Below, piece by piece: positions 42,219 through 64,000 of a DNA stretch of 64,000 nt (positions are counted from its first letter, which is position 1; every line of letters begins with the position of its first letter). The DNA is from an uncultured delta proteobacterium (lineage in GTDB: Bacteria > Myxococcota_A > Polyangia > Haliangiales > Haliangiaceae), in assembly GCA_963848295.1 (NCBI GenBank), contig CAWKDB010000010.1, forward strand, positions 4,096,001-4,160,000, in the 5' to 3' direction. Under the pieces are notes generated by a model. The model did not search any database, had not been told where the DNA came from, and saw only the letters and a program-made list of their open reading frames with translations. The position numbers were made by a program, and so were the translations under genes.

Positions 42219-43556
42219 CTACGGGCGGACGTGGTGTGGACCGCGCCCGCGCTCGGTCAGTCGCGGTCGCGGGCCGAACGCCTCGGGCGCCGCGCAGTGC
42301 GAGGTGGGTGCGAAGCCGATCTTCTTGTTGGCGACATCGATCACCGTGACGAAGGCGCGCATGAACGCGTCGCCCATCGTCGCGTTGCCTTGGTCGCCAC
42401 CGCCGTACACCACGAGGCAGTACTGGCCGCCACCGGTGTCGTAGAAGTACGACGCGAGCGCGGGGGCGCTGATCGTGATCGAGCCACCCCCGACGCCGGA
42501 GAACGTCAGCGAGAGCTTCGGCAACATCGCATCGACGGTCGCGGAAGTCGTCCCGGAAGACGCGGTGACGCAGCCAGCGGTGTCGGAATTCGAAGTCGTC
42601 GGGTCGGTGAGCGTCTGGCTCGGGAACAGCGACTTGAATGCGGTGTTCGCGTTGAGATCCTTGACCAGCGCGGTCTCGGCAGCGCTCGGGATATAGAACA
42701 GGCTCGTGCCCGTATCGACGATCGGGTTATCGAAGGTCGCGGCGGTCACGCCGAGGTTCGTGCCGCCGATCGCCATCGCCGTCATGTCGGCCGAATAGAA
42801 GTCGGCGTTGTCGCCGGTCGACAGCAGCGGCGTGTATTGCACGGGCGAAGCGACGTGAGTCTCGTCGTAGCCGCCGAGCCACATCGTGCCGTCGGTCGGA
42901 CACAGCTCGAAGCCCATGACCTTGGCCACACCCGCCGCGGTCACCGCGTCGAAGTAGGCGGTCGTGCCGGGATCGAGGAGCGCCGCTGGCCCCATGCCGA
43001 AGATGCCCTGATATTCGTTCCCCGCGAAGAACTGCGGGTTCGTGCTCTGCGACTTGATATCGACGAAGTCGAGCGACACGCTCGGCGTGCCGTGGTCGAG
43101 CGCGACGGTGTCGGAGTAGATCGATCCGGACCAGCCGCTGTTGTCGGCGTACGACGCTTGATCGCTCTTGCCGGTCGCGCTCGCCGAGGAGCCGGGCGCG
43201 TAGAGCGGCGACATTCCGCTGCACGTCGAGCAACCGGAACCGGCGAGGCCAGTCACCGTCGAACCGGTGTCGAGGTCGAGCTTGAACGTCTTGCCCGAGG
43301 CGGTGAGCGCGGGCAGGTAGAACTCGCCCTGATCGGCGCCGCTCGGCGTGGACAGCGGGATCGAATAGACGCCATTCATCGGCCCGGTGGCATCGGACGA
43401 CGACGAGCCGTCGACCGGGATCGCGCCGTCGCCGTCGGTGCCTCCGTCGTGAAGCGAATGCGAGGCGTCGGTGTTGCCGTTCGGGTTGGAGCCGGCGCTG
43501 CAACCGGTGACGAGCCCAAGAGTCATGACGAGCATCGAACGGAACTGCACTCGCAT
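42219..43556 (-). CDS. Pepsin-like (A1-family) aspartic protease lipoprotein
   Basis: Two catalytic motifs LDTGS and VDTGTS, flap Tyr (SYADNS), GIFGMG, MGDAFMRAFVTVID...KIGFA. Confidence 0.88.
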   Translation of the reverse strand: MRVQFRSMLVMTLGLVTGCSAGSNPNGNTDASHSLHDGGTDGDGAIPVDGSSSSDATGPMNGVYSIPLSTPSGADQGEFYLPALTASGKTFKLDLDTGSTVTGLAGSGCSTCSGMSPLYAPGSSASATGKSDQASYADNSGWSGSIYSDTVALDHGTPSVSLDFVDIKSQSTNPQFFAGNEYQGIFGMGPAALLDPGTTAYFDAVTAAGVAKVMGFELCPTDGTMWLGGYDETHVASPVQYTPLLSTGDNADFYSADMTAMAIGGTNLGVTAATFDNPIVDTGTSLFYIPSAAETALVKDLNANTAFKSLFPSQTLTDPTTSNSDTAGCVTASSGTTSATVDAMLPKLSLTFSGVGGGSITISAPALASYFYDTGGGQYCLVVYGGGDQGNATMGDAFMRAFVTVIDVANKKIGFAPTSHCAAPEAFGPRPRLTERGRGPHHVRP

Positions 43557-43764
43557 GGCGGACACGCTAGCCGCGGCCGTCGTGCGTTGGCGCTTTCAGC
43601 CTCGAACAGCCGATGACACTCGAGTGCGCAGAGTGTGCAAATCGTAACTTCCCGGTCGCAGTGACCGGCGATCCGCATCGTGCGCCTCGGCGACAGCGCA
43701 CGACCCATCGTGCCCCACGCGAGGACACAGCGCGCTCGTGCGCGAGACCCTCTCGAGGTGCGCG

Positions 43765-44261: not shown

Positions 44262-46217
44262 ATGGATGCCGGGCCGGAATTCGAGCGTTGTCTCGCACTC
44301 GTCGTCGCCAGCGTCGAACGCACGGCGAAGCGCGTCCATGGTGCCGCCGACCTGCCGCACTTGCCACTGCCGATCAGCGCCGAGCCCGGCACGCCCGCGT
44401 ACGAGATGGCGACCGCGCTGGGTCTGCTGCCCGACGAGCTCGAGCTCGTGTGGTCGCTGATCGCGCGCGCAGTCGAGCCGTCGATCGCGGCGCATGCGCG
44501 TGACGTGTTCGGCGCCGACGCGTTGCTCGGCGTCAGCCTCGCCCATCACATCGCATGGCGCGAGCTGTCGCCCGAGCGCAGTCGCGCGCTCCTCGCCGTG
44601 CTCGATCGCGGCCACCGCCTGCGCACGAGCGGCATCCTCGTGCCGGTCGGCGACGGGCCGTACGACGTCCAATCGCCGTGGACCACGAGCCCGCGCGTGT
44701 GCAACTTCATCCGCGGCTCGCGCGACGTCGATCCCGAGCTCTCCGCGATCGGCGGCCTCGTCGAGCCCGGCCGCGTCTACCACTCGGCCGCGCAGGAAGC
44801 GACGCTCGGCCAGCTCCGGCACTGGCTCGGTGCCTCGGCCGCCGCGACGATCCAGCTCGACGGGCGGGCCGGCTCGGGTCGCCGCACCGCGGTGGCGATC
44901 GCGGCCGCACCGCGCCGGACGATCGCGGTCGACTTCGCGCGCGTCTCGGGCCGTCGCGCGCTGCCGACGCTGCTCGCGCTGTGGCGCGAGGTCCTGCTGC
45001 TCGACGCCGTACCGGTGATCGCGAACCTCGACGATCTGTGGGCGCGGCTGCCGCCCGACGACGAGCTCGAGCAAGCGTTGGTCGGCGCGCTCGATGCGAT
45101 CGACGGCCCGCTGATCGTGACGACGTCGTCGGGACCGCTCGAGCTCCGCGCGTCGCGCCGTCTCGTGCTCAATGCGCGGTGGCCGCTGCCGGATGCGGCG
45201 ACGCGCCGGCGCTTGTGGAGCGAGCTCCTGCCCGAGCGGCCCGCAGACAACGTGCTCGATCTCGTCGCCGATCGCTACGAGCTCGGAGCCGGCGGCATCG
45301 TCGCGGCGGCGCGGTCGGCGCAACATCGTGCCGGGCGGCGCGACGGCGTCCCGGTGCTTGGCGAGCTGGTCGCGAGCGTCCAAGACAACATCGCCGAGCG
45401 CCTCGGCGAGCTCGCGAAGCGCGTCGAGGTCACGCAAGAGTGGAGCGAGCTCGTCTTGCCGGCCGAGACGCGCGACGACGTCGCGATGTTGATCGGTCGC
45501 ATTCGCAACGCGCACGTCGTGCTCGACGGCTGGGGCTTTCGCAAGAAGCTCGCCCGCGGCGGCGGCGTCGCGGCGCTGTTCTCGGGACCGCCCGGCACCG
45601 GCAAGACGATGGTCGCCGGCCTCATCGCCCGAGAGCTCGAGCTCGAGCTCTATCAAGTCGACCTGTCGCGCATCGTGTCGAAGTGGATCGGCGAGACCGA
45701 GAAGCAGCTCGCGCGCGTGTTCGAGGCGGCCGAGGCCGGCCACGCGCTGCTGCTGTTCGACGAGGCCGACGCGCTGTTCGCCAAGCGCTCGGCCGAGGTC
45801 AAGTCGGCGGTCGATCGCTACGCGAACCTCGAGGTGAACTACTTGCTCCAGCGCGTCGAGAGCTTCGGCGGCGTCGTCGTGCTGACCACGAACCTCGACA
45901 GCAGCATCGATCCCGCGCTGCGCCGCCGGCTCGCGAGTCACATCGTGTTCGGACCACCCGAGGTCGGCGAACGCGAGCGGCTGTGGCACACGATGCTCGA
46001 CACGCGCGCGCCGCGCGACCCCAACCTCGATCTGCGCGCCCTCGCCGAGGAGTTCGCCGACATGAGCGGCGCGAACATCCGCAACGCGACACTCGCCGCG
46101 GCCTTCATCGCCGCCGACGAGGGCCGGCCGATCGGCGCGAGCCACCTGCGCCGCGCCGCGCACAGCGAGTATCGAGCGATGGGGCGCGTGCTGAGTCGCG
46201 GCCCGAACGGCCGGTGA
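44262..46217 (+). CDS. AAA+ ATPase of the eCIS-associated (Afp15/Pvc15-like) type
   Basis: Degenerate first AAA (GRAGSGRRT); active second [55 protein letters not shown]. Confidence 0.85.
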
Positions 46218-48697: not shown

Positions 48698-49588
48698 CCT
48701 CGCATGACGTCAGGGCCGACGACCACGCATCGCAAGGCGCTCGCGACCTCTGAGGCCCGCATCGCGCTAACTCGTGCCGAGCGCGAAGGTCTTGCTCAAC
48801 ATCGCGACCAGCCGATCGAGCGTCGTGCGGCCGGGCAGCGGCAGCAGGCCGGCCTCGACGATCGCGCCGAGCTTCGCATCGCCGCGCCATGCGGTGCGCT
48901 GGCGGCTCATGATCGCGATCACGTTGGCGGTGTAGTCGCCGGTGAACGGGTGCTCGCCGGTGTGCCAGTAGGCGATCATCGCCGCCAGCGCGAACACGTC
49001 GGCCGCCGGTGTCGGCGGATCTTCGGGCCGTGCGAGCACCTCGGGCGCAAAGTACACGTGAGGGAAGCACAGCGGCACACCGTAGTCGGGCTTGGTCATC
49101 TTCGCGTGGAACACGTCGCAGCGCGGCGCGATGCCGGTCACGCGGTCACCGTCGATGTACACCAGCTCCGGGCGAAGGCCGCCGAGCACGATGCCGCGCG
49201 CATGTGCCGCCGCGACGACCTCGGCGACCGCGAGGCCGAGCCGAGCTGTCGTAGCCGCGTCCATCACCGTCGGGTGATCTGCGCTGGGGATGCCCGCAGG
49301 TTCGTCTTCGACCAGCCCGTCGTAGCGGGCCTCGCCGGTCGCGGTGACCGGGCCGATGTGCCGTAGCGCCGCAATCCCAGGCAGCTCGTAGCCGAGGCGC
49401 TGGCGGACCTGATCGAGTGGATCGCGTTGCGGCGTCCCGATCGAGATCAAGACGGAGGTCTGGCGCTCGCGATCGCGGCCGCGGTACAGCCCTCGGTCCG
49501 CGCCGCCGGCGAGCTCCTCGCGTAGCTCGTAGCGAGCGTGATCGAGTGTGGCACCTAGCGGGAGGTTGTCGCGCAGGAACGCTTCGCG
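48698..49588. repeat. ~890-bp direct repeat, copy 1
   Basis: Near-identical to 53170..54059; starts cctcgcatgacgtcagggccgacgacc, ends gcgcaggaacgcttcgcg. Confidence 0.92.
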
Positions 49589-50245
49589 AAATGTCGCGGC
49601 GTCGCGCATGAGCTTGTCGATCGTGTCCGTCGAAACCGACAACTCGCCGCCGGTGTCTTCTCGCACGATCCGAAATCCAGTGCCAGCTCGCGACACGCGA
49701 ACCGTCGGATTGCCATGAACCTCCGCGATCCCGCCGGCTAGCGCCTCTCGGAGTGCGGATCCGGAGCGGGAGAGCAGCGCGTCGAGCAGGCACCGCGCAA
49801 CACCCTCCGGATCATTCGCAAGCGCAAATCCCCCGTCCTCGCTCACCTGGACAAACGGTGCTTCGATGGCCCCAAACAGGACCTCGAGAGCATCGTCGAC
49901 CTCGGGCACATCACCGCCGTAGTCGGCGTCTTCGTAGCGAAGCGTATAGTGCTTGCGAAGCCACGCGACGAAGTGGCGTGCTGGTTCGACCGGGGTGATT
50001 CGATACCAGATGCGAATCATCATCGGTGCTACCTCGACCCCGATGACCGTGCCGGGAAAGCGTGCAGGCTCGTCTGCCCTCGCGTGCAAGGCTGTCTCGA
50101 TCCCCGAGACACCGTAAGAGAGCATGAAGGTGTGAGGCGAAACTGGATCCCGGGCCGAGTAGCGCAGACTCACAATGTACTTCTCGACGGAAGTGACATC
50201 GAACTCGCGATGATCTGCGGTACGAAGAATGATGTCCTGAATCAC
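48767..50245 (-). CDS. Putative immunity protein 3: variable N-terminal domain plus Ser/Thr pseudokinase domain
   Basis: Paralog of 51202..52689 and 53238..54716; kinase-like C-half (HARGIVLGGLRPEL, YFAPE, DVFALA, GEHPF). Confidence 0.75.
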   Translation of the reverse strand: MIQDIILRTADHREFDVTSVEKYIVSLRYSARDPVSPHTFMLSYGVSGIETALHARADEPARFPGTVIGVEVAPMMIRIWYRITPVEPARHFVAWLRKHYTLRYEDADYGGDVPEVDDALEVLFGAIEAPFVQVSEDGGFALANDPEGVARCLLDALLSRSGSALREALAGGIAEVHGNPTVRVSRAGTGFRIVREDTGGELSVSTDTIDKLMRDAATFREAFLRDNLPLGATLDHARYELREELAGGADRGLYRGRDRERQTSVLISIGTPQRDPLDQVRQRLGYELPGIAALRHIGPVTATGEARYDGLVEDEPAGIPSADHPTVMDAATTARLGLAVAEVVAAAHARGIVLGGLRPELVYIDGDRVTGIAPRCDVFHAKMTKPDYGVPLCFPHVYFAPEVLARPEDPPTPAADVFALAAMIAYWHTGEHPFTGDYTANVIAIMSRQRTAWRGDAKLGAIVEAGLLPLPGRTTLDRLVAMLSKTFALGTS

Positions 50246-50415
50246 GGAGCCTTCTTGTGACCGGCCGACATCACGGCGTCGTTGTAAGCATCAGCCTGCA
50301 CCTGAACTGCCACCGAGGCGAGCTTCTCGGAATCACCAAACGCAAGCTCCTCTCCGTTGCCAAGACGAAGCATGAACGTATGAGGCGCGATCGGGTCGGG
50401 TGCACCGAGACGCAG
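50242..50415 (-). pseudogene. Chimeric relic: immunity N-terminal fragment joined to a toxin C-terminal tip
   Basis: Reads LRLGAPDPIAPHTFML...QVQADAYNDAVMSAGHKKAP*. PDPIAPHTF matches 53238..54716, and AY..AVMSAGH matches the toxin tips. Confidence 0.7.
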
Positions 50416-50416
50416 C

Positions 50417-50920
50417 TCACGCGTTCGCTACCACCTGCGCGTACGTAGTCAGGTAGGACGCGAGTAACGTCGGGAGATCCCGAGCGGCGTCACTCGAGAT
50501 CAGGCCATAGCGCGCGCTCGTGTACGGACCGGTCGTGATCTCGGCGGGCATTCGAGCGACGACATCCTTCCTGCCGACGAGCCCGTAACCACGCTCCTGT
50601 TCGCGTCGCGTGCGCCATTGAAAGTAGCGTTGTTTCTCGACCGCAGCTGCCAGATTGTGAGACTCCACGCGCTTCATAATGCTCGATCGATCGGCGTCGA
50701 ACGCTACGATTCGCGGGCCCTGTTGCACGGGTGCGTCGGCGCGGAGCTCGAACACGATGACGTAGCCGGTCGCAGGAGCATCGGCGAGCATTCCCTCAAC
50801 GATCGGAACCTCGATCGCGAGCGCGTCTCCGACCGCCTTCGCGAGCTCGTCGACATGCCACGGCTGCTCGGCCACCGCCGCCGGGCGTGCGTTCACAGGA
50901 ACGAGAATGGTGACCTTCAT
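50417..50920 (-). CDS. Hypothetical protein (candidate orphan immunity protein)
   Basis: 167-aa ORF with AAGGAG upstream, inside the orphan cassette; no recognised family. Confidence 0.55.
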   Translation of the reverse strand: MKVTILVPVNARPAAVAEQPWHVDELAKAVGDALAIEVPIVEGMLADAPATGYVIVFELRADAPVQQGPRIVAFDADRSSIMKRVESHNLAAAVEKQRYFQWRTRREQERGYGLVGRKDVVARMPAEITTGPYTSARYGLISSDAARDLPTLLASYLTTYAQVVANA

Positions 50921-50926
50921 GAACGC

Positions 50927-51106
50927 CTACGGCTCCTTCGGGAAGCGCGCTACGTCGATGTCGTCCAGAAGACGTTCACACACGGTCAGCAATTCACGAT
51001 CGGGAAGCGGGTGCAATGCGATGGAAGCGAGGATTCGAGCGCGCGTCGTCGCATTGTTCGAGCGAAGCTTCTCGAGCCGATATAGCTGGTCATCTTCTTC
51101 GGTCAC
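50927..51106 (-). pseudogene. Short ORF or gene fragment (59 aa, HEAT-like)
   Basis: VTEEDDQLYRLEKLRSNNATTRARILASIALHPLPDRELLTVCERLLDDIDVARFPKEP*; below the ORF-track cutoff. Confidence 0.4.
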
Positions 51107-51201
51107 TGTGCAGTCTCGAGATCGTTACGGAAGTCGCGCCGTGTCGTCGCGGTTCACCAGATTAGAATTCGGCACGCCCGGCGGCACGACTATCGTCCAG
51201 T

Positions 51202-52689
51202 TCACGGTGCGTCGACGCGACCTACGAACCCGTCTTGCAGTGCGGTCAGCAGACCGTCGAGCGAAGCACGGCCAGGCATCGGCTTTAGCCCGGACTCGAC
51301 GATCGCGCCGAGCGCCGCATCGCCGCGCCATGGAGTGCGTTGGCGCGTGACGATCGCCATCACGTTCGCCGAGTACTCGCCGGTGAACGGATGGTTGCCG
51401 GTGTGCCAGAACGCGATCATCGCAGCGAGCGCGAACACGTCCGCGGCCGCGGTCGCGGGATCCTGCGGGCGTGCGAGCACCTCGGGCGCGAAGTAGATGT
51501 GCGGGAAGCACAGCGCGACGCCATGATCGGGCTTGGTCATCGAGGCGTGAAATAGGTCGCACCGCGGCGTGATGCCGACGACGCGATCGCCATCGAGGAA
51601 CACGAGCTCGGGACGCAGGCCTCCGAGCACCAAGCCGCGAGCGTGCGCCGCGGCGATAGTCTTGCCGACCGCGAGCCCGCGCTGCGCCGCCTCAGTGGCG
51701 CCGAGGTTCGGCCATCCCGTCGCGCGAACTCCTGGCGGCGGCTCCTCTTCGACGAGCCCGTCGTAGCGCGCCTCACCGGCGGAGGCGAGCGGCCCGATGT
51801 GAAGCAGCGCGGCAACGCCTGGCACCTCATAGGCAAGCCGCTGCTCGAGTTTGGCGACCGGCTCGCGCTGAGGCGTTCCGAGCGTGATCAGCACCGGCAC
51901 GTTGCGCTTCACGTCCCGCCCGCGATAGAGCCCGCGGTCCGGGCTACCGAACAGCTCGTCTTCGATCTCGAACCGCCCGCCGTCGAGCGTCAAACCCTTC
52001 GGAAAGTCCCTCAGCCGATAGTTGTTACGGACCTGCACCGCGGCGGCGAACAGCTGATCGATTTGCTCGACCGACATCGTCATCGCTTCGCCGATGTCAT
52101 CGCGCGCGATCCGCCACACGTCTCCGCTCCTCGTCGCGTGTAGCGAGCTATCGAACCGTACCTCGTCAGTCGAGCGCTTCGAGAGCTGGTCGTGCCACGC
52201 CGGGCCTTGGCTCTCGGAGAGCAACGCGTCGATCAGTGCCTTGGCGATCCCGACCGGGTCGTTGATGACCTCCAATCCATGCTCGTCGTACTGCGCCACC
52301 GAAGGCGGGTGGACCTCCCCGAACAGGCGTTCGAAGTTGGCATCGACGTCCGGGACCTCGCCGCCATAGTCGTCGTCAAAGAACCGAACTGGGTATCGTC
52401 CACGCAGCCAGGCAACGAAATGCCGCGCGGTCTCGACCTCCGAGCTCAGATAATGAATGCCGATTCGATGGCTGTGGACATCGAACAGGATCGATCCCGT
52501 CGGAAACTGATCTGAGTGAGCTACTCGTTCCGCAATCGCGTCGTCGAGCAGCTCCTGCGCATACATCGCGATAAACGTGTGCGCGTCATGCGGATCGCGC
52601 GCGACGAGTGGCAGCGCCGCCAGATAGGCCTCGACCTCGCCCACATCGAACTCCCCGGTGACCGGCTCGATCGCGATGTCCTGGATCAC
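51202..52689 (-). CDS. Putative immunity protein 2: variable N-terminal domain plus pseudokinase domain
   Basis: GTGA overlap with the orphan toxin tip; same architecture, with a more diverged kinase-like half. Confidence 0.75.
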   Translation of the reverse strand: MIQDIAIEPVTGEFDVGEVEAYLAALPLVARDPHDAHTFIAMYAQELLDDAIAERVAHSDQFPTGSILFDVHSHRIGIHYLSSEVETARHFVAWLRGRYPVRFFDDDYGGEVPDVDANFERLFGEVHPPSVAQYDEHGLEVINDPVGIAKALIDALLSESQGPAWHDQLSKRSTDEVRFDSSLHATRSGDVWRIARDDIGEAMTMSVEQIDQLFAAAVQVRNNYRLRDFPKGLTLDGGRFEIEDELFGSPDRGLYRGRDVKRNVPVLITLGTPQREPVAKLEQRLAYEVPGVAALLHIGPLASAGEARYDGLVEEEPPPGVRATGWPNLGATEAAQRGLAVGKTIAAAHARGLVLGGLRPELVFLDGDRVVGITPRCDLFHASMTKPDHGVALCFPHIYFAPEVLARPQDPATAAADVFALAAMIAFWHTGNHPFTGEYSANVMAIVTRQRTPWRGDAALGAIVESGLKPMPGRASLDGLLTALQDGFVGRVDAP

Positions 52690-53000
52690 TGGCCCACCTT
52701 GTGCCCGGCGCTCATAACGTCGTCCTGGTATGCCCGGAATTGCGGCTTGTTCGTACCGGCATTGTAGGGGTTGTTCGTGTCGCCGGTTCCCTTCGGAACT
52801 GCGCGACCTTCCGCATCGACCTTGAACGCGACGCCATCCTGGCCGGGCGCGGGTGTCGCGGTCTTTACCTCGACGCTGTACATGACCTTACCGGCGTTCT
52901 CTCTGTCACCCTTCGGCTTGACGCGGATGAGTGTTCCATCCGTGAACGAGTAGACTGCCTGGTCCTGCTTTGCGGTTTTGGCCGGATCCGTCGGGTCACC
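52686..53000 (-). pseudogene. Orphan toxin C-terminal module
   Basis: DPTDPAK..KQDQAVYSFTDGTLIRVKPKGD...YSVEVKTATPA..QDGVAFKVD..G..VPKG..D.NNPYN...VMSAGH, colinear with the large toxin's C-terminus. Confidence 0.85.
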
Positions 53001-53169
53001 GATGGGTTGGGTTGCTTGCAGCGCGTGCTGGTAGCTCAGGTCGGTAATTGACCAGCTCTTCGGCCGAGAAAATCCCAAGGTTGTTGGGGGCATCGAGCAT
53101 TGCGTGGGAGATCAGGAGCCCCGAGCCATCATCGAGTTCGATGACAACACCCGCCTCGCGCGGTCTCCG

Positions 53170-54059
53170 CCTCGCATGACGTCAGGGCCGACGACCACGC
53201 ATCGCAAGGCGATCGCGACCTCGGAGCCCGCATCGCGCTAACTCGTGCCGAGCGCGAAGGTCTCGCTCAACATCGCGACCAGCCGATCGAGCGTCGTGCG
53301 GCCGGGCAACGGCAGCAGGCCGGACTCGACGATCGCACCGAGCTTCGCATCGCCGCGCCATGGCGTGCGCTGGCGGCTCATGATCGCGATCACATTGGCG
53401 GAGTAGTCGCCGGTGAACGGGTGCTCGCCGGTGTGCCAGTAGGCGATCATCGCCGCCAGCGCGAACACGTCGGCCGCGGGCGTCGGCGGATCTTCGGGCC
53501 GTGCGAGCACCTCGGGCGCGAAGTAGACGTGAGGGAAGCACAGCGGCACACCGTAGTCGGGCTTGGTCATCTTCGCGTGGAACACGTCGCAGCGCGGCGC
53601 GATGCCGGTCACGCGGTCACCGTCGATGTACACCAGCTCCGGGCGAAGGCCGCCGAGCACGATGCCGCGCGCATGTGCCGCGGCGACGACCTCGGCGACC
53701 GCGAGGCCGAGCCGAGCCGTCGTGGCCGCGCCCATCACCGTCGGGTGATCTGCGCTGGGGATGCCCGCAGGTTCGTCCTCGACCAGCCCGTCGTAGCGGG
53801 CCTCGCCGATCGCGGTGACCGGCCCGATGTGCCGTAGCGCCGCAATCCCAGGCAGCTCGTAGCCGAGGCGCTGGCGGACCTGATCGAGTGGATCGCGTTG
53901 CGGCGTCCCGATCGAGATCAAGACGGAGGTCTGGCGCTCGCGATCGCGGCCGCGGTACAGCCCTCGGTCCGCGCCGCCGGCGAGCTCCTCGCGCAACTCG
54001 TAGCGACCGTCATCGAGTGTGGCACCTAGCGGGAGGTGGTCGCGCAGGAACGCTTCGCG
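53170..54059. repeat. ~890-bp direct repeat, copy 2
   Basis: See 48698..49588. Confidence 0.92.
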
Positions 54060-54716
54060 CAGCTGAGACGCGTCGCCGGCGAGTCGCTCGATCGTCTCCG
54101 GTGACAGCGTCAGCTCGCCGCGGTCATCGCTGCGAATCCGCCACCCCATACCGTCCCAGCTCGCAACAAGCCCACGCGCGATCTGGAGTGGCGCCTGGCC
54201 AGCGGCGACCGGTGGCTGTTGCAACTCGGCACCGCGCCCCGACAGCAGGGCTAGCACCAGCTCGTGCGCGATGTCGTCGGGATCGTTGATGAGCTCGAGC
54301 CCGTTCTCATCGAAGCTCGAGACCACCGGCGGATGAACCTTGCCGAACAGTAGCTCGAGCTTGTCGTCTACGTGTTCCGTGCGATCGCGACCGTAGTCGT
54401 TGTCGAGAACCTTCAGCGCGTAACGCTCGCGCAACCATTGAACGAAGCGCCTAGGCTCTTCGGTCCGGCTGGTCGAGTATCCGAGGGTGATCACCTGGGG
54501 GTGAACTGCGACGACGACGATCGGGCCTGGGAAGCCTGTAGCGCCACCCGTTCGCTCTGCGAGCGCCTCGTCGAGCACGTCTCGCGCATAGCCCAGAATG
54601 AACGTATGAGGTGCGATCGGGTCGGGCGCCGCCCACGCACGGCTCGTAAGGAATGTCTCGATCGCCGGGACATCGAACGTCCCGGTTAGCGGCTCTAGAG
54701 CGATATCAGTGATCAT
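53238..54716 (-). CDS. Putative cognate immunity protein 1: variable N-terminal domain plus pseudokinase domain
   Basis: ATG overlaps (ATGA) the reconstructed native toxin stop at 54713-54715. Confidence 0.78.
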   Translation of the reverse strand: MITDIALEPLTGTFDVPAIETFLTSRAWAAPDPIAPHTFILGYARDVLDEALAERTGGATGFPGPIVVVAVHPQVITLGYSTSRTEEPRRFVQWLRERYALKVLDNDYGRDRTEHVDDKLELLFGKVHPPVVSSFDENGLELINDPDDIAHELVLALLSGRGAELQQPPVAAGQAPLQIARGLVASWDGMGWRIRSDDRGELTLSPETIERLAGDASQLREAFLRDHLPLGATLDDGRYELREELAGGADRGLYRGRDRERQTSVLISIGTPQRDPLDQVRQRLGYELPGIAALRHIGPVTAIGEARYDGLVEDEPAGIPSADHPTVMGAATTARLGLAVAEVVAAAHARGIVLGGLRPELVYIDGDRVTGIAPRCDVFHAKMTKPDYGVPLCFPHVYFAPEVLARPEDPPTPAADVFALAAMIAYWHTGEHPFTGDYSANVIAIMSRQRTPWRGDAKLGAIVESGLLPLPGRTTLDRLVAMLSETFALGTS

Positions 54717-57700
54717 GGTCCAGCCCGGTGGCCGGCGCCCATGACGGCCGACTCGTATGCATCGTACTGCGTCTTGTTCGTTCCGTCGTTGTACGGGTTG
54801 TTCGCGCGTCGCGTACTCGAGCCCCGCGCAGGATCAGGGCGCGACCGTTGTCTGGCACCCACGCGTTCGCCGTCTTCCGAGTTCCCGTTGCGTCCTCGAC
54901 CTGAATCGCTCCTCGAAAGCGGATAACGAAATCCCAGCCGAGCGTCTGCAGGAACCGATACAGCTTCTGATCGCCGAAGCCGCGATCCGCCAGCACTGTG
55001 ATCTTCACGTCGGGCGCGACGCAGTCGTGCAGCCGTTCGAGCAACCGATACTCGTGGTCATTCCGCTTGTTCTTGAGCGTGGTCTTGCTCACCGTCATCC
55101 AGATCAACGGGGTCGCCCGCCCATGGCTGGTGATCAGGTAGCCCGCCAGCGTCGCGTGGTCGTCGCCATCGAACTCTGTCCAGTCGAGCGCGACGACGAT
55201 CTCCTTGCGCTCTGCGACGACAAACTGGGCCCACGGTCGGAACAACGTCCACACGTCGATGCCCGGGTTTCCGAGCAAACGATCGGTCTGCTCACCCCGG
55301 ACGTCATCCGGACCCTTCGGTACGGGATCACCCTGTATATCCACTTTGAACGAAACCCCCGCTTGATCGGATGCCGGCGTCGCAGTCTTGACCTCGACAC
55401 TGTATGTGAGCTTGCCCGGATTGTTATTCTTGTCACCCTTTGGCTTGATGCGGATCAGGGTCCCATCGGTGAAGTCATAGGCGACCTGGTCCTGCATCTT
55501 CGTGGGGTCCGTAGGATCCTTCGTGGGATCGATGGCCCGCGTCGCCGCACCTCCTGCAACCTCGAGGTCTAGCAAAGCTTCCATCTCTGCCTGGGTCTTG
55601 CCGTCGAGCTGAGACGCGAGGCGCTTCGCCGCCCCGCCCGCCGTTCCGCTGTCATAGTTCGTGAGCCGATTCTTCAGGTCCGTCGTCGGTCCTTTGAAGG
55701 CCTTTCGACTGGCCATCTCTGTAGTCGCACGATTCGTAGCAGCGGTCTGTGCCTCGTTCTTTGCAGCGGCCTTTGCAGCCTTGTCAGCGGCCTTGCCCGC
55801 GAGTTTGATCGCGGTGTCCGACTTGGCCCCGGGCTTCGCCATCTCGCTGTCGTAGGTGGCAACCCCTGCAGCGCGCGTTGCTTCTCGCACGCGCACGGCG
55901 GCGTCGGGAGGAATGTCCTGGTACTTGGCGAGCTCGCGCCCCGAGTGGCTATTGGCCGTGTCGAAGATCCGCGTCGCATCGCCTGGTGGAATGTTGCCGG
56001 CCTTGGTCTGCAGGTCGGTCGGACCCGCTAGTCCGGCTTCGTCACCGGTTACCAGGCCCGCGGGCGGCTCGTTGAATATCACGACGCTACCGAGAGCCTC
56101 GTGGTCGACCGTATAGACGTCGCCGCTCCATACGAAGTTGCCGTGCTCATCGGTCGCGATCATTCGCGACTTGAAGACACCGACGTTCTTGTTCCCGGCC
56201 CAGGATCCGATGCGCTCGGGCTGCAGGATCTTGATCTGGACGAGCGGCTCCTTGGCGCCGGGCGTCGGGTTGCCGATCCTATCACCACCCTTGGAGGCGT
56301 ACGGGGTCTGAACTGTGTGCTCGGCGAGCTTGTTGCGCGCGCAGAACGCGACGTCGGCTGCCGACGGGAACACGTTGACCTTGTTGAGCTCGCCGTTACG
56401 ACCGCCGCCCTGCACGAGCTCTCCGAAGCTCGTCGACCCACCCTTGATCATCTTGCCGGCAGTCAACGGATGCGAGTGAGCGACGGCGCGCACGCCCGGG
56501 AACCCGGCCCAATCGACCGCCCCGGGCTCGCCGCGGATGATGAAGAACTCGCCGTTCGCCTCGCCGATGCCCCATTCGACGCTGCGCGTATCGAAGTGGC
56601 GCGGCGCTTCCATCCCGATCGCTTGAAACGCGGCGGGATCTCCGGCGGCGAGCTTGGCGAGCACCGCTTGGGCAGTCGACTCGTTCGCTAGCTTCGTACC
56701 GATCGCGACGTTGGTCCGCGTCAGCACGGCGGACGGATCCATCGTCGGGGTGATCTCGACCGCCGGCGTCGCAGCCTGGTCCGGCGTGGCGGGGGCGGTA
56801 CCCTTCGTGTCGATCGCGTCGATGAAGGCTTGCTGGTCCTTGGCCGAGAGCTCGCCCAGATGCGAACGTGCGGCCGCGATGTCAGCCGCGTTGTTCTGTT
56901 CGACCGCATTCTTGAGCGCGAGCAGCGCAGTGCGTTGCTGTTCGGTGAGCGAGTAGATCTGCGCGTCGTCGAGCTTCGCTCGCCTCGCGACCTCGACGAT
57001 CTGCTTGCCCGTCGGTGTGATCGCCCAATCGGGCACGGCCTCGGCGACCAGGATCGGCGTCGCGTTGTCGCCCTTCGGCGTGATTCGCCAGGTCTGCGCG
57101 CCGGTTCCCGGATCGCGCTCGCCTTCCGGAACGACGGTCGCGCCTTCGGCGGTCTCGAGCGCGCGCATCCGCGCGACCTCGGCGGCCCCGGCCTCGAAGA
57201 AGTTCGGACCGCGCTGCTTCATCGTCATCGCCATCTCGGCGCCGAGCGAGTTCGCGCGCAGGTCGTTCAACGTCTTCATCTGCTTGTCGAGCACGTCACC
57301 GTTGATGCCCTGCGCCTTGGCACCTTTCTTGTCGTTATTCGCCGCGTCTTTGAGCGCCTCGAGCGCGTCCATCTCCTTGTCGATCTGCGCTTGGTCTCTG
57401 TGAGCCGCCTCGATCACATCCGCGGCCGATACCTTGCCGCCCCTCGTCACCCTGTCCTGCATCACGAGGTTGGCCTTGCGCTCGGTGGCCCAACCATCGA
57501 GTGCGAGCTGCCATTTCTTGCCCGCAAACGCGGCGCTGACCTCGAGCTTCTTGATCGGCGACTCCATCAGCCGGCCACCGATCGAGAAGATCACGGCCTG
57601 TGACACCGCCATGATGATCGCGTCATGCTGCTCCTGCTCGGTCATCGGCTTCGCGCCGAACATCTGTTTGACCTTCGCCTCGACCCAGCCGGTCATGATC

Positions 57701-60700
57701 CCGATGCCGCTGTTGATCATCGACTGACCGATCGCGTCGCCTGCGGTCGCGGCGAACTTCGCGAGCTTACCGGCCTCTTCGCCGGCCTTGAACAACCTCG
57801 ACAGCCCGAGCGCCTTGACGCCCATGCCGACGCCGCGCATCGCGCCGAACATCACCAGGTTCTTCGCGAAGTCGCTGAGCAGCGCACCGATGCTGTGATC
57901 CCTCGAGAACGCCACGTTCGACAGCACCGTGAATGTCGCGGTCTCGGCGAGGAAGCCGGCCACCGCGGCCGTGTTGCGCGCGACGCCGATGCCGCCGACC
58001 ACGACCTCCGTGCCATCGACGACCAGCGCTGTGCCGCCGAGCGTGGCCGACAGCGCCGAACCCGCGCCCATGCTGACGAGCGTGATCGCGACCATCGCGA
58101 TGATCATCACGATCATCTGGTCTTCGTGGATCGTCTTGAGCTCGTCCTGGACCTCCTTGAGGAAGCCCTGGAACTTCGTGTCCGCGGCGAGCGTCTCGAA
58201 GTCGGTGCGGGCCTTGTCCATCGCTTTCTTGTCGCCGGCCTCGCCCTTCTTGATCAGCGCGTAGATCGCCTTCCACTGCGCGTAGTAGTCCTTCGCTCGC
58301 ACCTTGAGCGCGGTGGCGTCTCGCCGGTCTCCGCCGAGCGTCGTCCACGAGTCCACCGCCTGATCGAGCGAGGTCCACTCGTGCTCGAGCTGGGCGGCCT
58401 GCGCGGCGACCTGCGATTCGAAGATCAAGTTGCGGGCGTCTTGCGTCGTGCCCGCCGCTTTCGGATCGGCCTTGGACGGGTCACCGAGCATCTGCGACAT
58501 CATCTGCGCGCGCAGCTGTCCGAGTTGCTTGCGCTCCTCGATCTCGCGCTTGCCCATACCGTCGGTGTCGAAGTCTTGCTTCGCGTCGGTCGTATCGCTC
58601 GCCTGATACGACGCCGACTGCGGCGTGCTGAGCCCGCGCTCGAGGATCTCGATCTCCAGCGTCAGCGTGTGACGCGACGCCGCGGCGATCATCTGCGCGG
58701 CACTGTCGACGAGGTCACACGACAGCAGCGCGTTCGCCCACATCTCGGCGTCCTGGCGCAGCGGATGATCCGGCGGCAGCCCGTCGGTCGTGCCCTTGTC
58801 GGCCGAATCCTTGTTGGCGGCTTTGTAGGCGTCGAGTCGCGCGCCATCCCCCGCGAGCCCGGCGCCGGCGCGCGAGATGATGTCGGACTGCTTCTTGGAC
58901 TGAGCGTCCCACTTCGCGACGTCGCCATCGTCTTGGGTCTCGAGCTGGGAGACCCGGTGCTCGATCATCGTCGCCGCCGTGATGACCTTCTCCTCGAGCT
59001 GGAACTGCTGCGCGATCGGCGCGATCGAGGAGCGCAGCACGTTGGCGTTCACGCGCATCTCCTCGAGGATGCGCTCGCGCGGTCGCGCGTCCTTGGGATC
59101 GATCGGGCCCGCTTGCGACAACGCAGCCTCGGCTGCCTCGGGGCCGTTGGAGCGCGCGAGCTGTGCGGCGCGGCCGATCGGATTCTCGACCTCGGCGAAC
59201 GTGCCACGCGTATCGTCCTCGAGGCCGTACAGCGGGTGCGCGACCTGGAGCCGGAAGCTCTCCGTCGATGGCAAGCCGAGCGCGAGCACGATCTCCTCGG
59301 GCGTCGCCGTCGCCGGGCTGATCAGCCGGTGCCAGCCGGGCAGGTCTTTGACATCCTCGAGCTGGATGTTCTGAGACGAGTTGAGCAGCTTCGGCGGGCC
59401 GGCGAGCTCGGGATGCCGCTCCTTGAACTTGACCTGATCGATCCCGACCATGTTGCCCTTCGCGAGGGCGGTGATGACGAGCGGATCGATCGGATGCGAC
59501 ACGAGGACGTCGTCGGGACCGGGCTCCTTGCCGTTCGCGATCTTCGCTTGCGCGTAGCGCGGGATCTCGCGCTGCAGCGATTCCGCGATCCGGCGCGCGA
59601 GCGCGTTGCCGACCTCGGTGCCGACGCTCGGGAAGTACGAGTCGGGCCCCTTCGACACCGGCGATCCGCCGTCGACGCTCGCTGGCTCTACCTCGGTCAC
59701 GACGCGCGACTCTGCGACCAGCTTGCCGATCAGCTCGGGGCGCACGAGCGAATCGAGGTCGGTCTTCGCGGTGATCTGTGCAGCCATCGCGGTGGGAAAC
59801 TGCGTGACACCGGCCGCCGTCCACGTCACCGTGTCGTCGTAGGTCGCGAACGGCAGGGCGCGCAGTTGATCGGCAGCGCCGGCGGCGATCTGCACCAGGT
59901 ACTGCTCGTAGTAGGCCTGCGTCGTCGGCCCGGGGTCCACCGTGCCCGCTTGGCAGCGCTGCAGTTGCAGCCCGGTGCGCATGACGTCGCCGACCGCGCC
60001 CGCGAAGTTGCCCAGGCGCTCGAGCCCGGCGTCGCGCTCGGCGCCCTGATCCTCCGCGCCGATCGGCTGGCGTCGAGCGTCCGGATCCTTGTGCGCGTCG
60101 GCTTGCTGCGCGGTGTGCGCGAGCTCGTGCGCGAGCAACGCGTCGCCCGCCACCCCGGACGTCGGTGCGCTCGAGCCCATGACGACGTTCTGCCCGACGG
60201 CGAACGCGGCGGCCCCGTGCTCGCTCGCCATCCCGGCCGCGGTCGGCCCGGTGTGGATCTTCGCGCCCGAGACGTCGGCGCCGACGACCGCCGACATCCG
60301 CTGCGCGGTCGCGTGATCGAGCGAACGGCCCGGGCCGAGCTCGGCCTCCATCCCGTCGAGCGACTTGCGATTGACGATCGGCTGCGCGTCGCTCGCGGAC
60401 CGCGGAGCTTGATTCGTCTCCGCGGCTTGCGCGGCCGCTGGATCGGCGGCGGCGAGCTCGGGTGGCAGCTTGTGGGTCTGCTTCCAGTACTGGACGCCGG
60501 CGCGGACGCGCGCGACGAGCAACGGGACCAGCGCCTCGGCACCGGTGGCGGTGCGCGCCTCGGGGACCCAGCGCTGGATCAAGGTCACCGTCGACTTCGC
60601 GGGCAGCGCCGCGTACTTCGCGAAGTATTGCGCGATGTACGGACACGCGACCGCCGAGCCGATCATGCCGAGCTCGGCATCCGCCGCCGCGGTGACGAAC

Positions 60701-61308
60701 GGCCTCAGCCGCTCGAGAAACGAGCTCTTCAGCATCTGCCCGGGGGCGAGCGTGCCGCCGTCGACGAGAAGCTGTTGCACCGCCGAGGCCCCGGCCGTGA
60801 CCTGCGCCGCGACCTGATCGGCGTGTTGTTCCGCCGCCGAGCCCTCGGCACCGACCGCGACCTTGCGCTGCGGCGCCGGTGTCGCGCCTCGCTGCTGCGC
60901 GACGTGCGTGAGCTCGTGCGCCATCAACGCTTGGTCGTGCTCGCTCTCGCCGGGCCCCAGGAAGATGTCGTTGCCGTACGCGAACGCGCGCGCGCGCATC
61001 GCGTGCACCGTTTTTTGCGACAGCGGATCTTTGTGGAACCGCGCACCGCTGACATCCACGCCGGTGTCCGCCCGCACCAGGGCCGCGAGGTCCGCGGGTA
61101 CGGGCTGTCCCTCGCCCCGCTTCTCCACCGCGAGCGTCGCGGCGTCTTCGAGATCGTTCGGGGCGCGGGCGGCGCCGAGGTCGCGCCACAACTGGGCCTC
61201 GCGGCGCGCGTGATCGGGCGCGACGCCATCGCTTCGCGGGCTCCGTCGGGCCTCGGCGACCGGGCGCTCGGCGAGCTCGGGACGATGAAGTCTCTCGCGC
61301 TCGCTCAT
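54713..61308 (-). CDS. DUF4157 (eCIS core domain) polymorphic toxin, with its C-terminal tip interrupted by a transposase fragment
   Basis: Two DUF4157 units (ARAFAYGNDI...AHELTHVAQQ; AAAFAVGQNV...AHELAHTAQQ), LQRC, hydrophobic region IVMIIAMVAITLVSMGAG, JAB-like HSHP...PSAAD, C-terminal variable module. Confidence 0.82.
54803..55299 (-). mobile_element. Internal fragment of an IS4-like DDE transposase (497 bp, no ends seen)
   Basis: QTDRLLGN..IDVW, VALDWTEFD, HGRATPLIW, VLADRGFGD, DFVIRFRG. Covers the first two catalytic Asp regions only. Confidence 0.82.
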
Positions 61309-62840: not shown

Positions 62841-62965
62841 GCGACTCGGCAGGTGGATTGGCCCGCGCCGCGCGATCCTCCGGTCGCACTTCACTTGAAG
62901 TGCGATCTTCAAGTAACGATCGCCTCGACCACCCCCCCGGTTCCAGCTGCGGCACAATCACCTCG

Positions 62966-64000
62966 TTGCCCGACAGCGGTCGTGTAGTTGGCGAGTTCGT
63001 CCTCGAAGAGCAGATCGGGGGCGGTGGCGGCGGAAGTGTGTTCCGCGCGTACCAACCCGTGTTGCAGCGCAACGCGGTCGTAAAACTCCTTCACGCGAAC
63101 GGAGAACAGGCGCTCGTCGATCAGTTCCTCCGCGAGGCGCGCCTCGCCTCGCGGCTGGACCATCCGTTCGCGGCGCACGTCTACGCGTTCGGCGCCGAAG
63201 CCGACGGCCTGCTGTGGATCGCGATGGAGATCGTCCGTGGAACGCCGCTGTCGGAGTTGTTAGCCGGCGGACCCTTGGACCGCGGTCTCGCGTTCGTCGA
63301 GCGGGTCTGTGAGGTCGTGCAGTCGACGCACGAGCTCGGCATCATCCACGGCGATCTGAAGCCATCGAACATCATGGTGATCTCGCGGGTGGGCAGCTTG
63401 TTCCCCAAGCTGATCGACTTCGGAATCGCCCGCGACTCGAGTGATCGCACGAGCGGCGGGCTCGGCACGCCGGCGTACATGGCGCCCGAACAATGGGTGT
63501 CCGGCCAGACGCTCACACCGGCGACCGACGTCTACGCGCTCGGCGCACTCACGTTCGAGATCCTCACCGGCAACCCGCCCTTCACGGGGCGCTCGAGGAT
63601 GGAGCTCGCGACCCACCATGCGCGCAGTGCGCCGCCGACGCTGCCGGCGGAATTTCCGAGCCGCATCAGCGCCGCGATCACGAAGGCGATGGCGAAGCAG
63701 CCGGCCGAGCGTTTTGCCAGTGCGGTCGAGTTCGCGCGGGCGTTGAACGCAGGCTCCGAGGAGGCGTTGGCCGCGATCCACGTGCCGCGAATCGACGAGC
63801 TGACACGCGACGATGCGCTGCTCGGCGCCCCGGAGCCGATCGCGGAGGCCGTCGCGCGCCTCGATGCGGCGAGCGATCCCGAGAGCGCTTATGCAGCGAT
63901 GCGGCGGCTAGTCGAGACCATCGCCCAGTACATCGGTGTCGTCGCCCTCGGTTGCCGCGCGCGCGTGCGCGCCGGAGCGATCGCGAGCGAACACACGACC
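62966..64000 (+). CDS. Ser/Thr protein kinase, N-terminal part (runs off the window end)
   Basis: Manual translation: EEQIGGGGGGSVFRA, AVVK, FLREARLASRLDHP, IIHGDLKPSN, LIDFGIA, GTPAYMAPEQ, DVYALG. TTG start is inferred. Confidence 0.9.
   Translation, partial: MPDSGRVVGEFVLEEQIGGGGGGSVFRAYQPVLQRNAVVKLLHANGEQALVDQFLREARLASRLDHPFAAHVYAFGAEADGLLWIAMEIVRGTPLSELLAGGPLDRGLAFVERVCEVVQSTHELGIIHGDLKPSNIMVISRVGSLFPKLIDFGIARDSSDRTSGGLGTPAYMAPEQWVSGQTLTPATDVYALGALTFEILTGNPPFTGRSRMELATHHARSAPPTLPAEFPSRISAAITKAMAKQPAERFASAVEFARALNAGSEEALAAIHVPRIDELTRDDALLGAPEPIAEAVARLDAASDPESAYAAMRRLVETIAQYIGVVALGCRARVRAGAIASEHTT

Follow-up and report, generated by a model that had tools for sequence, protein, structure and literature searches.

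What does a kinase domain that has lost its catalytic residues do behind a toxin gene? The question is raised by a 64,000-nt stretch of DNA (the whole of which we call the window) on contig CAWKDB010000010.1 from an uncultured delta proteobacterium, where three paralogous genes, P1 (53238–54716, 492 amino acids (aa)), P2 (51202–52689, 495 aa) and P3 (48767–50245, 492 aa), lie downstream of a polymorphic toxin, all of them on the minus strand. A preliminary description had taken their N-terminal part as the immunity domain and the pseudokinase domain (PK) as a scaffold or signalling output. Our analysis points elsewhere. The locus is a polymorphic toxin–immunity system in which a pseudokinase is paired with a JAB domain of an undescribed clade, and is more specific than it first read. 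We give odds of roughly two in three that PK neutralises the JAB domain, most likely by stoichiometric binding, and that P1–P3 are polyimmunity fusions directed against a toxin with two warheads.

The kinase ancestry of the C-terminal part is well visible. Each of P1, P2 and P3 gives a sub-threshold match to Pfam Pkinase (E 3–5e-5), and a PK profile built from 16 sequences aligns with PknA of Mycobacterium tuberculosis over about 240 positions (11–249) and through both lobes (E 1.3e-15). In the C-terminal 265 aa VLIS or VLIT stands opposite VAVK, LGGLRPEL opposite HRDVKPGN and APR opposite DFG, while the APE, DxF/W and GxxPF landmarks of the Hanks-type Ser/Thr kinase fold are kept. All motifs by which the preliminary description had recognised a degenerate kinase domain in the three paralogs were found again, and by its sequence the domain is neither a non-kinase fold nor an active Hanks-type kinase. 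The β3 Lys, the catalytic Asp and the DFG Asp are each kept in 0 of 148 domain rows, which were drawn from the best 150 representatives after exclusion of one canonical kinase domain and of three proteins with several kinase domains; an active Hanks-type kinase is ruled out by this joint loss. In 45 PK domains derived from the loci the Lys site holds Thr (31), Ser (7) or Ala (7) and the Asp site Gly in 37 and Asp in one. Near-invariant polar residues are a hinge Glu, the R-P-E of the catalytic loop, an Arg that replaces the DFG Gly and the Asp of DVF. Because the catalytic loss is family-wide, PK is, as judged from its sequences, a distinct pseudokinase family, and its members score well apart from the ordinary kinases found in their genomes.

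A search of 1.84 billion representatives with the PK profile gave at most 348 proteins at E≤1e-30. Among the best 150 of them 78 are stand-alone domains and 72 carry an N-terminal extension, a split that counts four proteins which are not plain family members (P0132 and P0135–P0137); the 69 N-terminal parts examined fall into 24 BLAST clusters, mostly without Pfam names. Of 90 genomes from the genus 15 encode PK, as do 21 of 400 genomes drawn from the class, and named relatives come from Kofleriaceae, Polyangia, Hyalangium and Haliangium. A metagenome scan added one true relative (L097, with the same domain order as the window proteins) and 12 weak kinase matches. One protein (P0004) contains two family pseudokinase domains, and in P0132 a canonical kinase is joined to a PK-family domain.

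The toxin upstream is a 2200-aa open reading frame (ORF; 54706–61308, minus strand) with two eCIS_core (DUF4157) domains (Pfam, E 8e-34 over two stretches), a long trunk, an internal JAB domain and a C-terminal domain (tip) that is broken by a fragment of an insertion sequence (IS). When the toxins upstream of PK genes are compared their tips differ, and one internal region is common to them, aa 1525–1765 of the window toxin (56014–56736, minus strand). In this region E, HxH and PSxxD are invariant in all 23 members, which is the residue pattern of a JAMM metal site, with about 35 residues between HxH and SxxD. The region belongs to no family in Pfam or NCBIfam; PF15659 and PF14220 match 0 of the 23 members and find nothing in the window's own genome at E≤10, and hhalign against five DUF4329 domains gave a probability of 0.5%. 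The structure model (pLDDT 92.9) was compared by VIA with 48,161 PDB representatives, and the top four matches were all JAMM/MPN proteins: PfJAMM1 (Z 5.1, root-mean-square deviation 3.8 over 103 aligned residues), BRCC36 (4.6), DSY2949 (4.3) and CSN5 (4.3). We call the region a putative divergent JAB domain because of the motif together with the consistent JAMM/MPN identity of the top fold matches, and the clade formed by these toxin domains is, by the family comparisons above, undescribed. A comparison of the JAB and PK profiles revealed no relationship between the two.

The connection of PK with this domain became apparent from co-occurrence. A search with the JAB profile in 138 genomes (a tally that includes the unpublished G075 and G010, on which no claim rests) gave 55 matches, 19 of which were already in the alignment and 36 were new. 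From the new ones 35 were fetched, one in an unpublished genome being excluded, and three had no DNA downstream, leaving 32 assessable toxins. PK was found within about 5 kb of 29 of them, with two PK genes frameshifted and one 4.6 kb away. As two of these neighbours had already been known as PK matches the blind count is 27/30, and it rises to 30/33 with JAB toxins from three other families, where PK adjoins 3/3. As a control we used ten well-assembled genomes, chosen for carrying the JAB–PK pair, whose 256 eCIS_core matches collapsed to 237 genes: PK adjoins 12/12 JAB-bearing genes versus 0/225 others, a contrast for which we claim no p-value because kin are not independent. A generic association of PK with toxins of the extracellular contractile injection systems (eCIS) is ruled out by the 0/225. 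Seen from the other side, 15 of 21 PK loci in the ten genomes adjoin a JAB toxin. The identities of JAB and PK also co-vary (Mantel rho 0.53, 45 pairs), part of which linkage alone would give. No family PK was found within 1.5 kb at five DUF4329 and 19 Prok-JAB loci.

Gene order and spacing fit to this picture. In 58 JAB ORFs the JAB domain is terminal in 16 and followed by a second tip in 42. Where it is terminal, the PK domain starts 9–93 bp past the toxin stop at 14/14 assessable loci, and at 13 terminal-JAB loci no further conserved gene was found 3' of PK. Where it is internal, PK lies 350–2762 bp downstream in 35/42, without overlap with the former spacing, and a gap of this size can accommodate a further immunity module. 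The remaining seven internal-JAB loci comprise two with PK upstream, one with PK at 4.6 kb, one that is not assessable and three without PK. The 42 second tips form 27 clusters, one of which is Pfam CdiA_C, and the same immunity module can be separate before PK (L036, L039) or fused to it (P0019/L110). At L039 (10581–19349) a JAB toxin, two immunity-like genes and a stand-alone pseudokinase stand directly before an eCIS sheath/tube-like operon. L035 (292–8379) encodes a JAB toxin whose second tip resembles a minimal protein kinase by eye; it is followed by a 179-aa gene, a tyrosine phosphatase on the opposite strand (Pfam Tc-R-P, E 2e-7) and a PK protein with an N-terminal module, N2.

That module is part of the N-terminal region, which had been described as a single domain of about 210 aa. 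It measures about 225 aa and can be divided into two modules, N1 (residues 1–127) and N2 (residues 128–225), which are separable; in P1 they occupy 54333–54716 and 54042–54332, with the pseudokinase at 53247–54041. P2 and P3 have the same N1–N2–PK architecture. N1 is found directly 3' of homologs of the window tip, either fused to other domains or as a protein of 126–135 aa, so that the expected stand-alone homologs behind similar tips do exist. With a model from which these loci had been left out it was found behind 18 of 19 new tips, and with a later model which includes them behind 26/26. Of the 26 loci three continue with PK, namely L041 and two in the window; L164 has a frameshifted PK remnant, and in 22 none is present. 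N1 is thus likely the cognate immunity domain of the tip, as judged by gene order, with PK dispensable for this role; the earlier idea of a toxin-binding N-terminal domain holds for N1, which alone travels with the tip, and not for the N-region as a whole. A need of PK for anti-tip immunity is ruled out by the 22 tip–N1 loci without any pseudokinase. Both N1 and PK have the placement of immunity-protein genes, N1 behind its 26 tips and PK in the blind and control counts given above.

N2 combined with PK occurs in 11 representatives and in L035, and N1 with PK but without N2 in P0030 and P0054. Among the proteins searched N2 is always attached to PK, in a search pool that is PK-biased. Tip and N1 have no sequence match in Pfam, NCBIfam or the PDB, and the Atlas matches for N1 are unnamed and all under 0.9. 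A word-indexed homolog search with the N-region recovered the query alone, and a pattern scan of the genome contigs with the tip gave no match. In the array at L159 (G294:C3:2393000-2412999) the same tip occurs three times, every copy having its own N1 protein of 258–259 aa and no pseudokinase, and at L170 (3266–5776) a single tip has three N1 paralogs in tandem behind it, which form a homogeneous run of polyimmunity genes.

Taken together, these results suggest the following model. The eCIS-core protein would be a polymorphic toxin with two warheads, a JAB/JAMM zinc domain in its interior and, behind this, a variable tip at the C-terminus; N1 would neutralise the tip, the dead kinase domain would be the cognate immunity of JAB, acting by binding and without ATP chemistry, and N2 may be a lineage-specific appendage. 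The spacing for terminal and internal JAB can then be read as a rule of one immunity module per warhead, tip immunity first and JAB immunity second, and from this rule the window genes would be composed of N1 (anti-tip) and N2–PK (anti-JAB). New tips with their own immunity modules would slot between a fixed JAB and a fixed PK, as separate genes or fused to PK, and recombination through the conserved PK DNA may build an array of orphan tip and immunity cassettes. We infer the toxicity of both warheads, the binding by N1 and PK, delivery by an eCIS and the recombination route from this arrangement. If the model is true, a bacterial pseudokinase family would receive a defined immunity job, which would be a new role for a pseudokinase, and a simple rule would govern how the immunity genes of two-warhead toxins are stacked. 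The JAB–PK pair could also help to find out what is cut by JAB toxins in bacteria, and the pairing is testable with two short domains; cultured carriers are Hyalangium versicolor (JAB toxin) and Polyangium jinanense (pseudokinase).

Several observations weigh against it. The fold match of JAB is weak (best Z 5.1), Foldseek gave no hit at E≤0.001, and the JAB profile aligns with Prok-JAB and DUF4329 only in the HxH stretch. The control genomes were selected for the pair, and kin are not independent of each other. Six of the 21 PK loci in these genomes are orphans with no JAB toxin nearby, two further PK genes (L217, L218) follow eCIS-core toxins without a detectable JAB, and at L164 an orphan tip without JAB precedes N1 and the frameshifted PK remnant. 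In the opposite direction, three of the 32 assessable JAB toxins (L177 and L178 in G003, L203 in G033) lack PK in cis although their JAMM motif is intact, and carry only an immunity gene against the second tip; G003 has one distant PK elsewhere in the genome, and none was found in G033, which is 86% complete. L040 and L117 have PK on the upstream side of the toxin. Finally, co-occurrence cannot separate an immunity protein from a chaperone.

We also considered what JAB might attack. A speculative possibility, which we regard as rather unlikely, is that it is an antibacterial enzyme directed at the Hanks-type Ser/Thr kinases which rival myxobacteria depend on, and that PK is a dead copy of this target which confers decoy immunity by mimicry. 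If true, this would explain why the kinase fold is retained with its catalysis erased and tied to one toxin domain, and also why the JAB–PK pair is found mainly in large, kinase-rich genomes.

The chaperone question leads to an alternative that we consider unlikely, in which JAB is a processing or loading module instead of a warhead and PK a chaperone, adaptor or activator dedicated to it. JAB frequently lies directly ahead of a second tip, where releasing peptidases are located, and the three JAB toxins without PK in cis are also in its favour, as a lethal domain should not tolerate such an arrangement. However, in the 16 of 58 loci with JAB as last domain there is nothing to release, and at the 14 assessable terminal loci the immunity slot, which is translationally coupled, is filled by PK and there is no further conserved candidate. 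Moreover, JAB domains have been described as toxin tips with own immunity genes (PMC3482391). Immunity by binding remains our preferred interpretation. An atypical enzymatic reaction, by which PK would inactivate JAB or repair its damage as the kinase-fold protein SidJ glutamylates SidE, appears improbable. The near-invariant polar residues of the family and the SidJ precedent would agree with such a chemistry, but the three canonical nucleotide and metal ligands were lost together in 148/148 rows and no alternative metal-binding cluster was identified.

The idea of the preliminary description, that the N-domain senses the toxin and PK passes the signal on into the Ser/Thr kinase network of the host, fared still worse. 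It could account for the fusion of PK to at least 24 unrelated N-terminal modules (among 69 N-parts), and the genomes are rich in ordinary kinases, with P0132 even fusing a canonical kinase to a family domain. Against it, 78 of the best 150 representatives have no N-module to sense anything, 22 of the 26 tips have N1 without PK, the presence of PK is predicted by JAB and not by tips or eCIS toxins in general, and the same immunity module is found fused or separate. That PK is a mere conserved DNA anchor for cassette recombination, without a protein function related to the toxin, is largely refuted, since in spite of the signs of recent exchange between P1 and P3 described below PK is under purifying selection (dN/dS 0.20–0.32; crude NG86, six pairs), which speaks against a pure anchor, and has a fixed family-wide substitution pattern and a tie to JAB across families.

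The remaining features of the window, all on the minus strand, lie in the order toxin, P1, orphan tip, P2, a 167-aa ORF with decayed remnants, and P3. The main tip has its N-terminal part at 55300–55620 (start approximate) and its last part at about 54710–54802, as located by DNA identity to the orphan tip (73% and 76% in two pieces); the profile match covers positions 4–79 of 107. Between them lies a piece of 497 bp from the interior of an IS4-family element (54803–55299; NCBIfam IS4, E 3e-30), which is 98–99% identical to four further sites in the genome, the full element having about 1285 bp. Exactly this piece is missing from one contig of the public run X1 (single contig, depth 2.8); it may be a real insertion, an assembly artefact or an allele of a sub-population. 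The orphan tip cassette (52686–53093) contains an intact tip domain (52689–53012) with a conserved D-G-x-x-x-R-x-K-P, E, K and a terminal H, and its stop is overlapped by P2. Behind P2 follow the 167-aa ORF (50417–50920), without family assignment in Pfam and NCBIfam scans, and the remnants (50231–50403), which are a 35-bp piece of an N1 start (50369–50403) and 59 bp of a tip end with gene start (50231–50289). The immunity position proposed for the three genes could be confirmed for the genes themselves, and an upstream tip gene is missing at P3, where just this 59-bp remnant (repeat D13) is left. PK of P3 is 97% identical to that of P1 and both have a 60-bp 3' flank in common, in contrast to only 41% identity in N1, which points to a recent recombination through the PK half.

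Tube and sheath genes of an eCIS particle are present in the genome on contig C2, unlinked to this locus. The same contig encodes a paralog of the window toxin (L175, G000:C2:477682-484446) which matches aa 2–1498 only and has another end, without JAB and without PK. With its N-terminal eCIS_core domain and exchangeable C-terminal tips the window toxin qualifies as an eCIS/PVC polymorphic toxin. G280, G307 and G269 each have between 39 and 52 eCIS_core matches, which amounts to a very large repertoire of effectors within one genus. The window also encodes a 651-aa AAA ATPase (44262–46217, plus strand) at 2.5 kb from the cassette array, which we take to resemble the Afp15-type ATPase of eCIS, and a secreted-looking pepsin-type aspartyl protease (42219–43565, minus strand; Pfam Asp, E 2e-29). 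At 62858–64000 (plus strand) an ordinary Ser/Thr kinase, truncated by the window end, keeps the Lys, HGDLKPSN and DFG.

A literature search, with most subscription papers lying outside it, found neither a pseudokinase immunity protein nor a JAB–pseudokinase pair described. DUF4157 is the marker of eCIS toxins (Geller et al. 2021, PMC8213781), and the consulted parts of Zhang et al. 2012 (PMC3482391) describe Tox-JAB-1 with Imm65, Tox-JAB-2 with Imm-NTF2-2, polyimmunity proteins and PVC toxins; they mention JAB toxins as possible nucleases, leaving peptidase versus nuclease open, and kinases only as toxins or targets. A kinase-like immunity protein is not among the nine occurrences of 'kinase' examined in that paper, the rest of which may bear on novelty, and in the consulted portion of PMC11297309 'kinase' and 'immunity' stand in the references only. 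The locus resembles PVC/eCIS DUF4157 toxins (PMC3482391, PMC8213781) in its N-terminal DUF4157, long linker, variable tip and downstream immunity gene, and in its orphan cassettes and several immunity domains per chain. What sets it apart from them is that two domains of catalytic appearance follow one another and are matched by a stack of immunity modules. The nearest named Atlas clusters are Tox-JAB-1 (PF15659) and Tox-JAB-2 (DUF4329/PF14220), with 0.89 and 0.84 as leads only, which have the E, H[ST]H, S and D motif, the toxin position and probably the JAB/deaminase fold in common with our domain. Unlike them it matches neither Pfam model, is carried by an eCIS_core instead of an RHS protein, is often internal and has a pseudokinase as partner, which is absent at 5/5 DUF4329 loci within 1.5 kb; no Pfam match to Imm65 or Imm-NTF2-2 was found among the scanned neighbours and fused parts. 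With Legionella SidJ, the kinase-fold metaeffector that inactivates SidE, PK would share the dedication of a pseudokinase to silencing a co-encoded toxic enzyme. SidJ is an active glutamylase in a eukaryotic host, whereas PK is a degenerate PknA/PknB-type Hanks domain in the immunity slot. EssB/YukC is a membrane component of a secretion machine. Like PK it is a bacterial pseudokinase in an interbacterial toxin system, that of type VIIb secretion (PMC9600267), and in contrast to it PK is soluble-looking and tied to one toxin domain.

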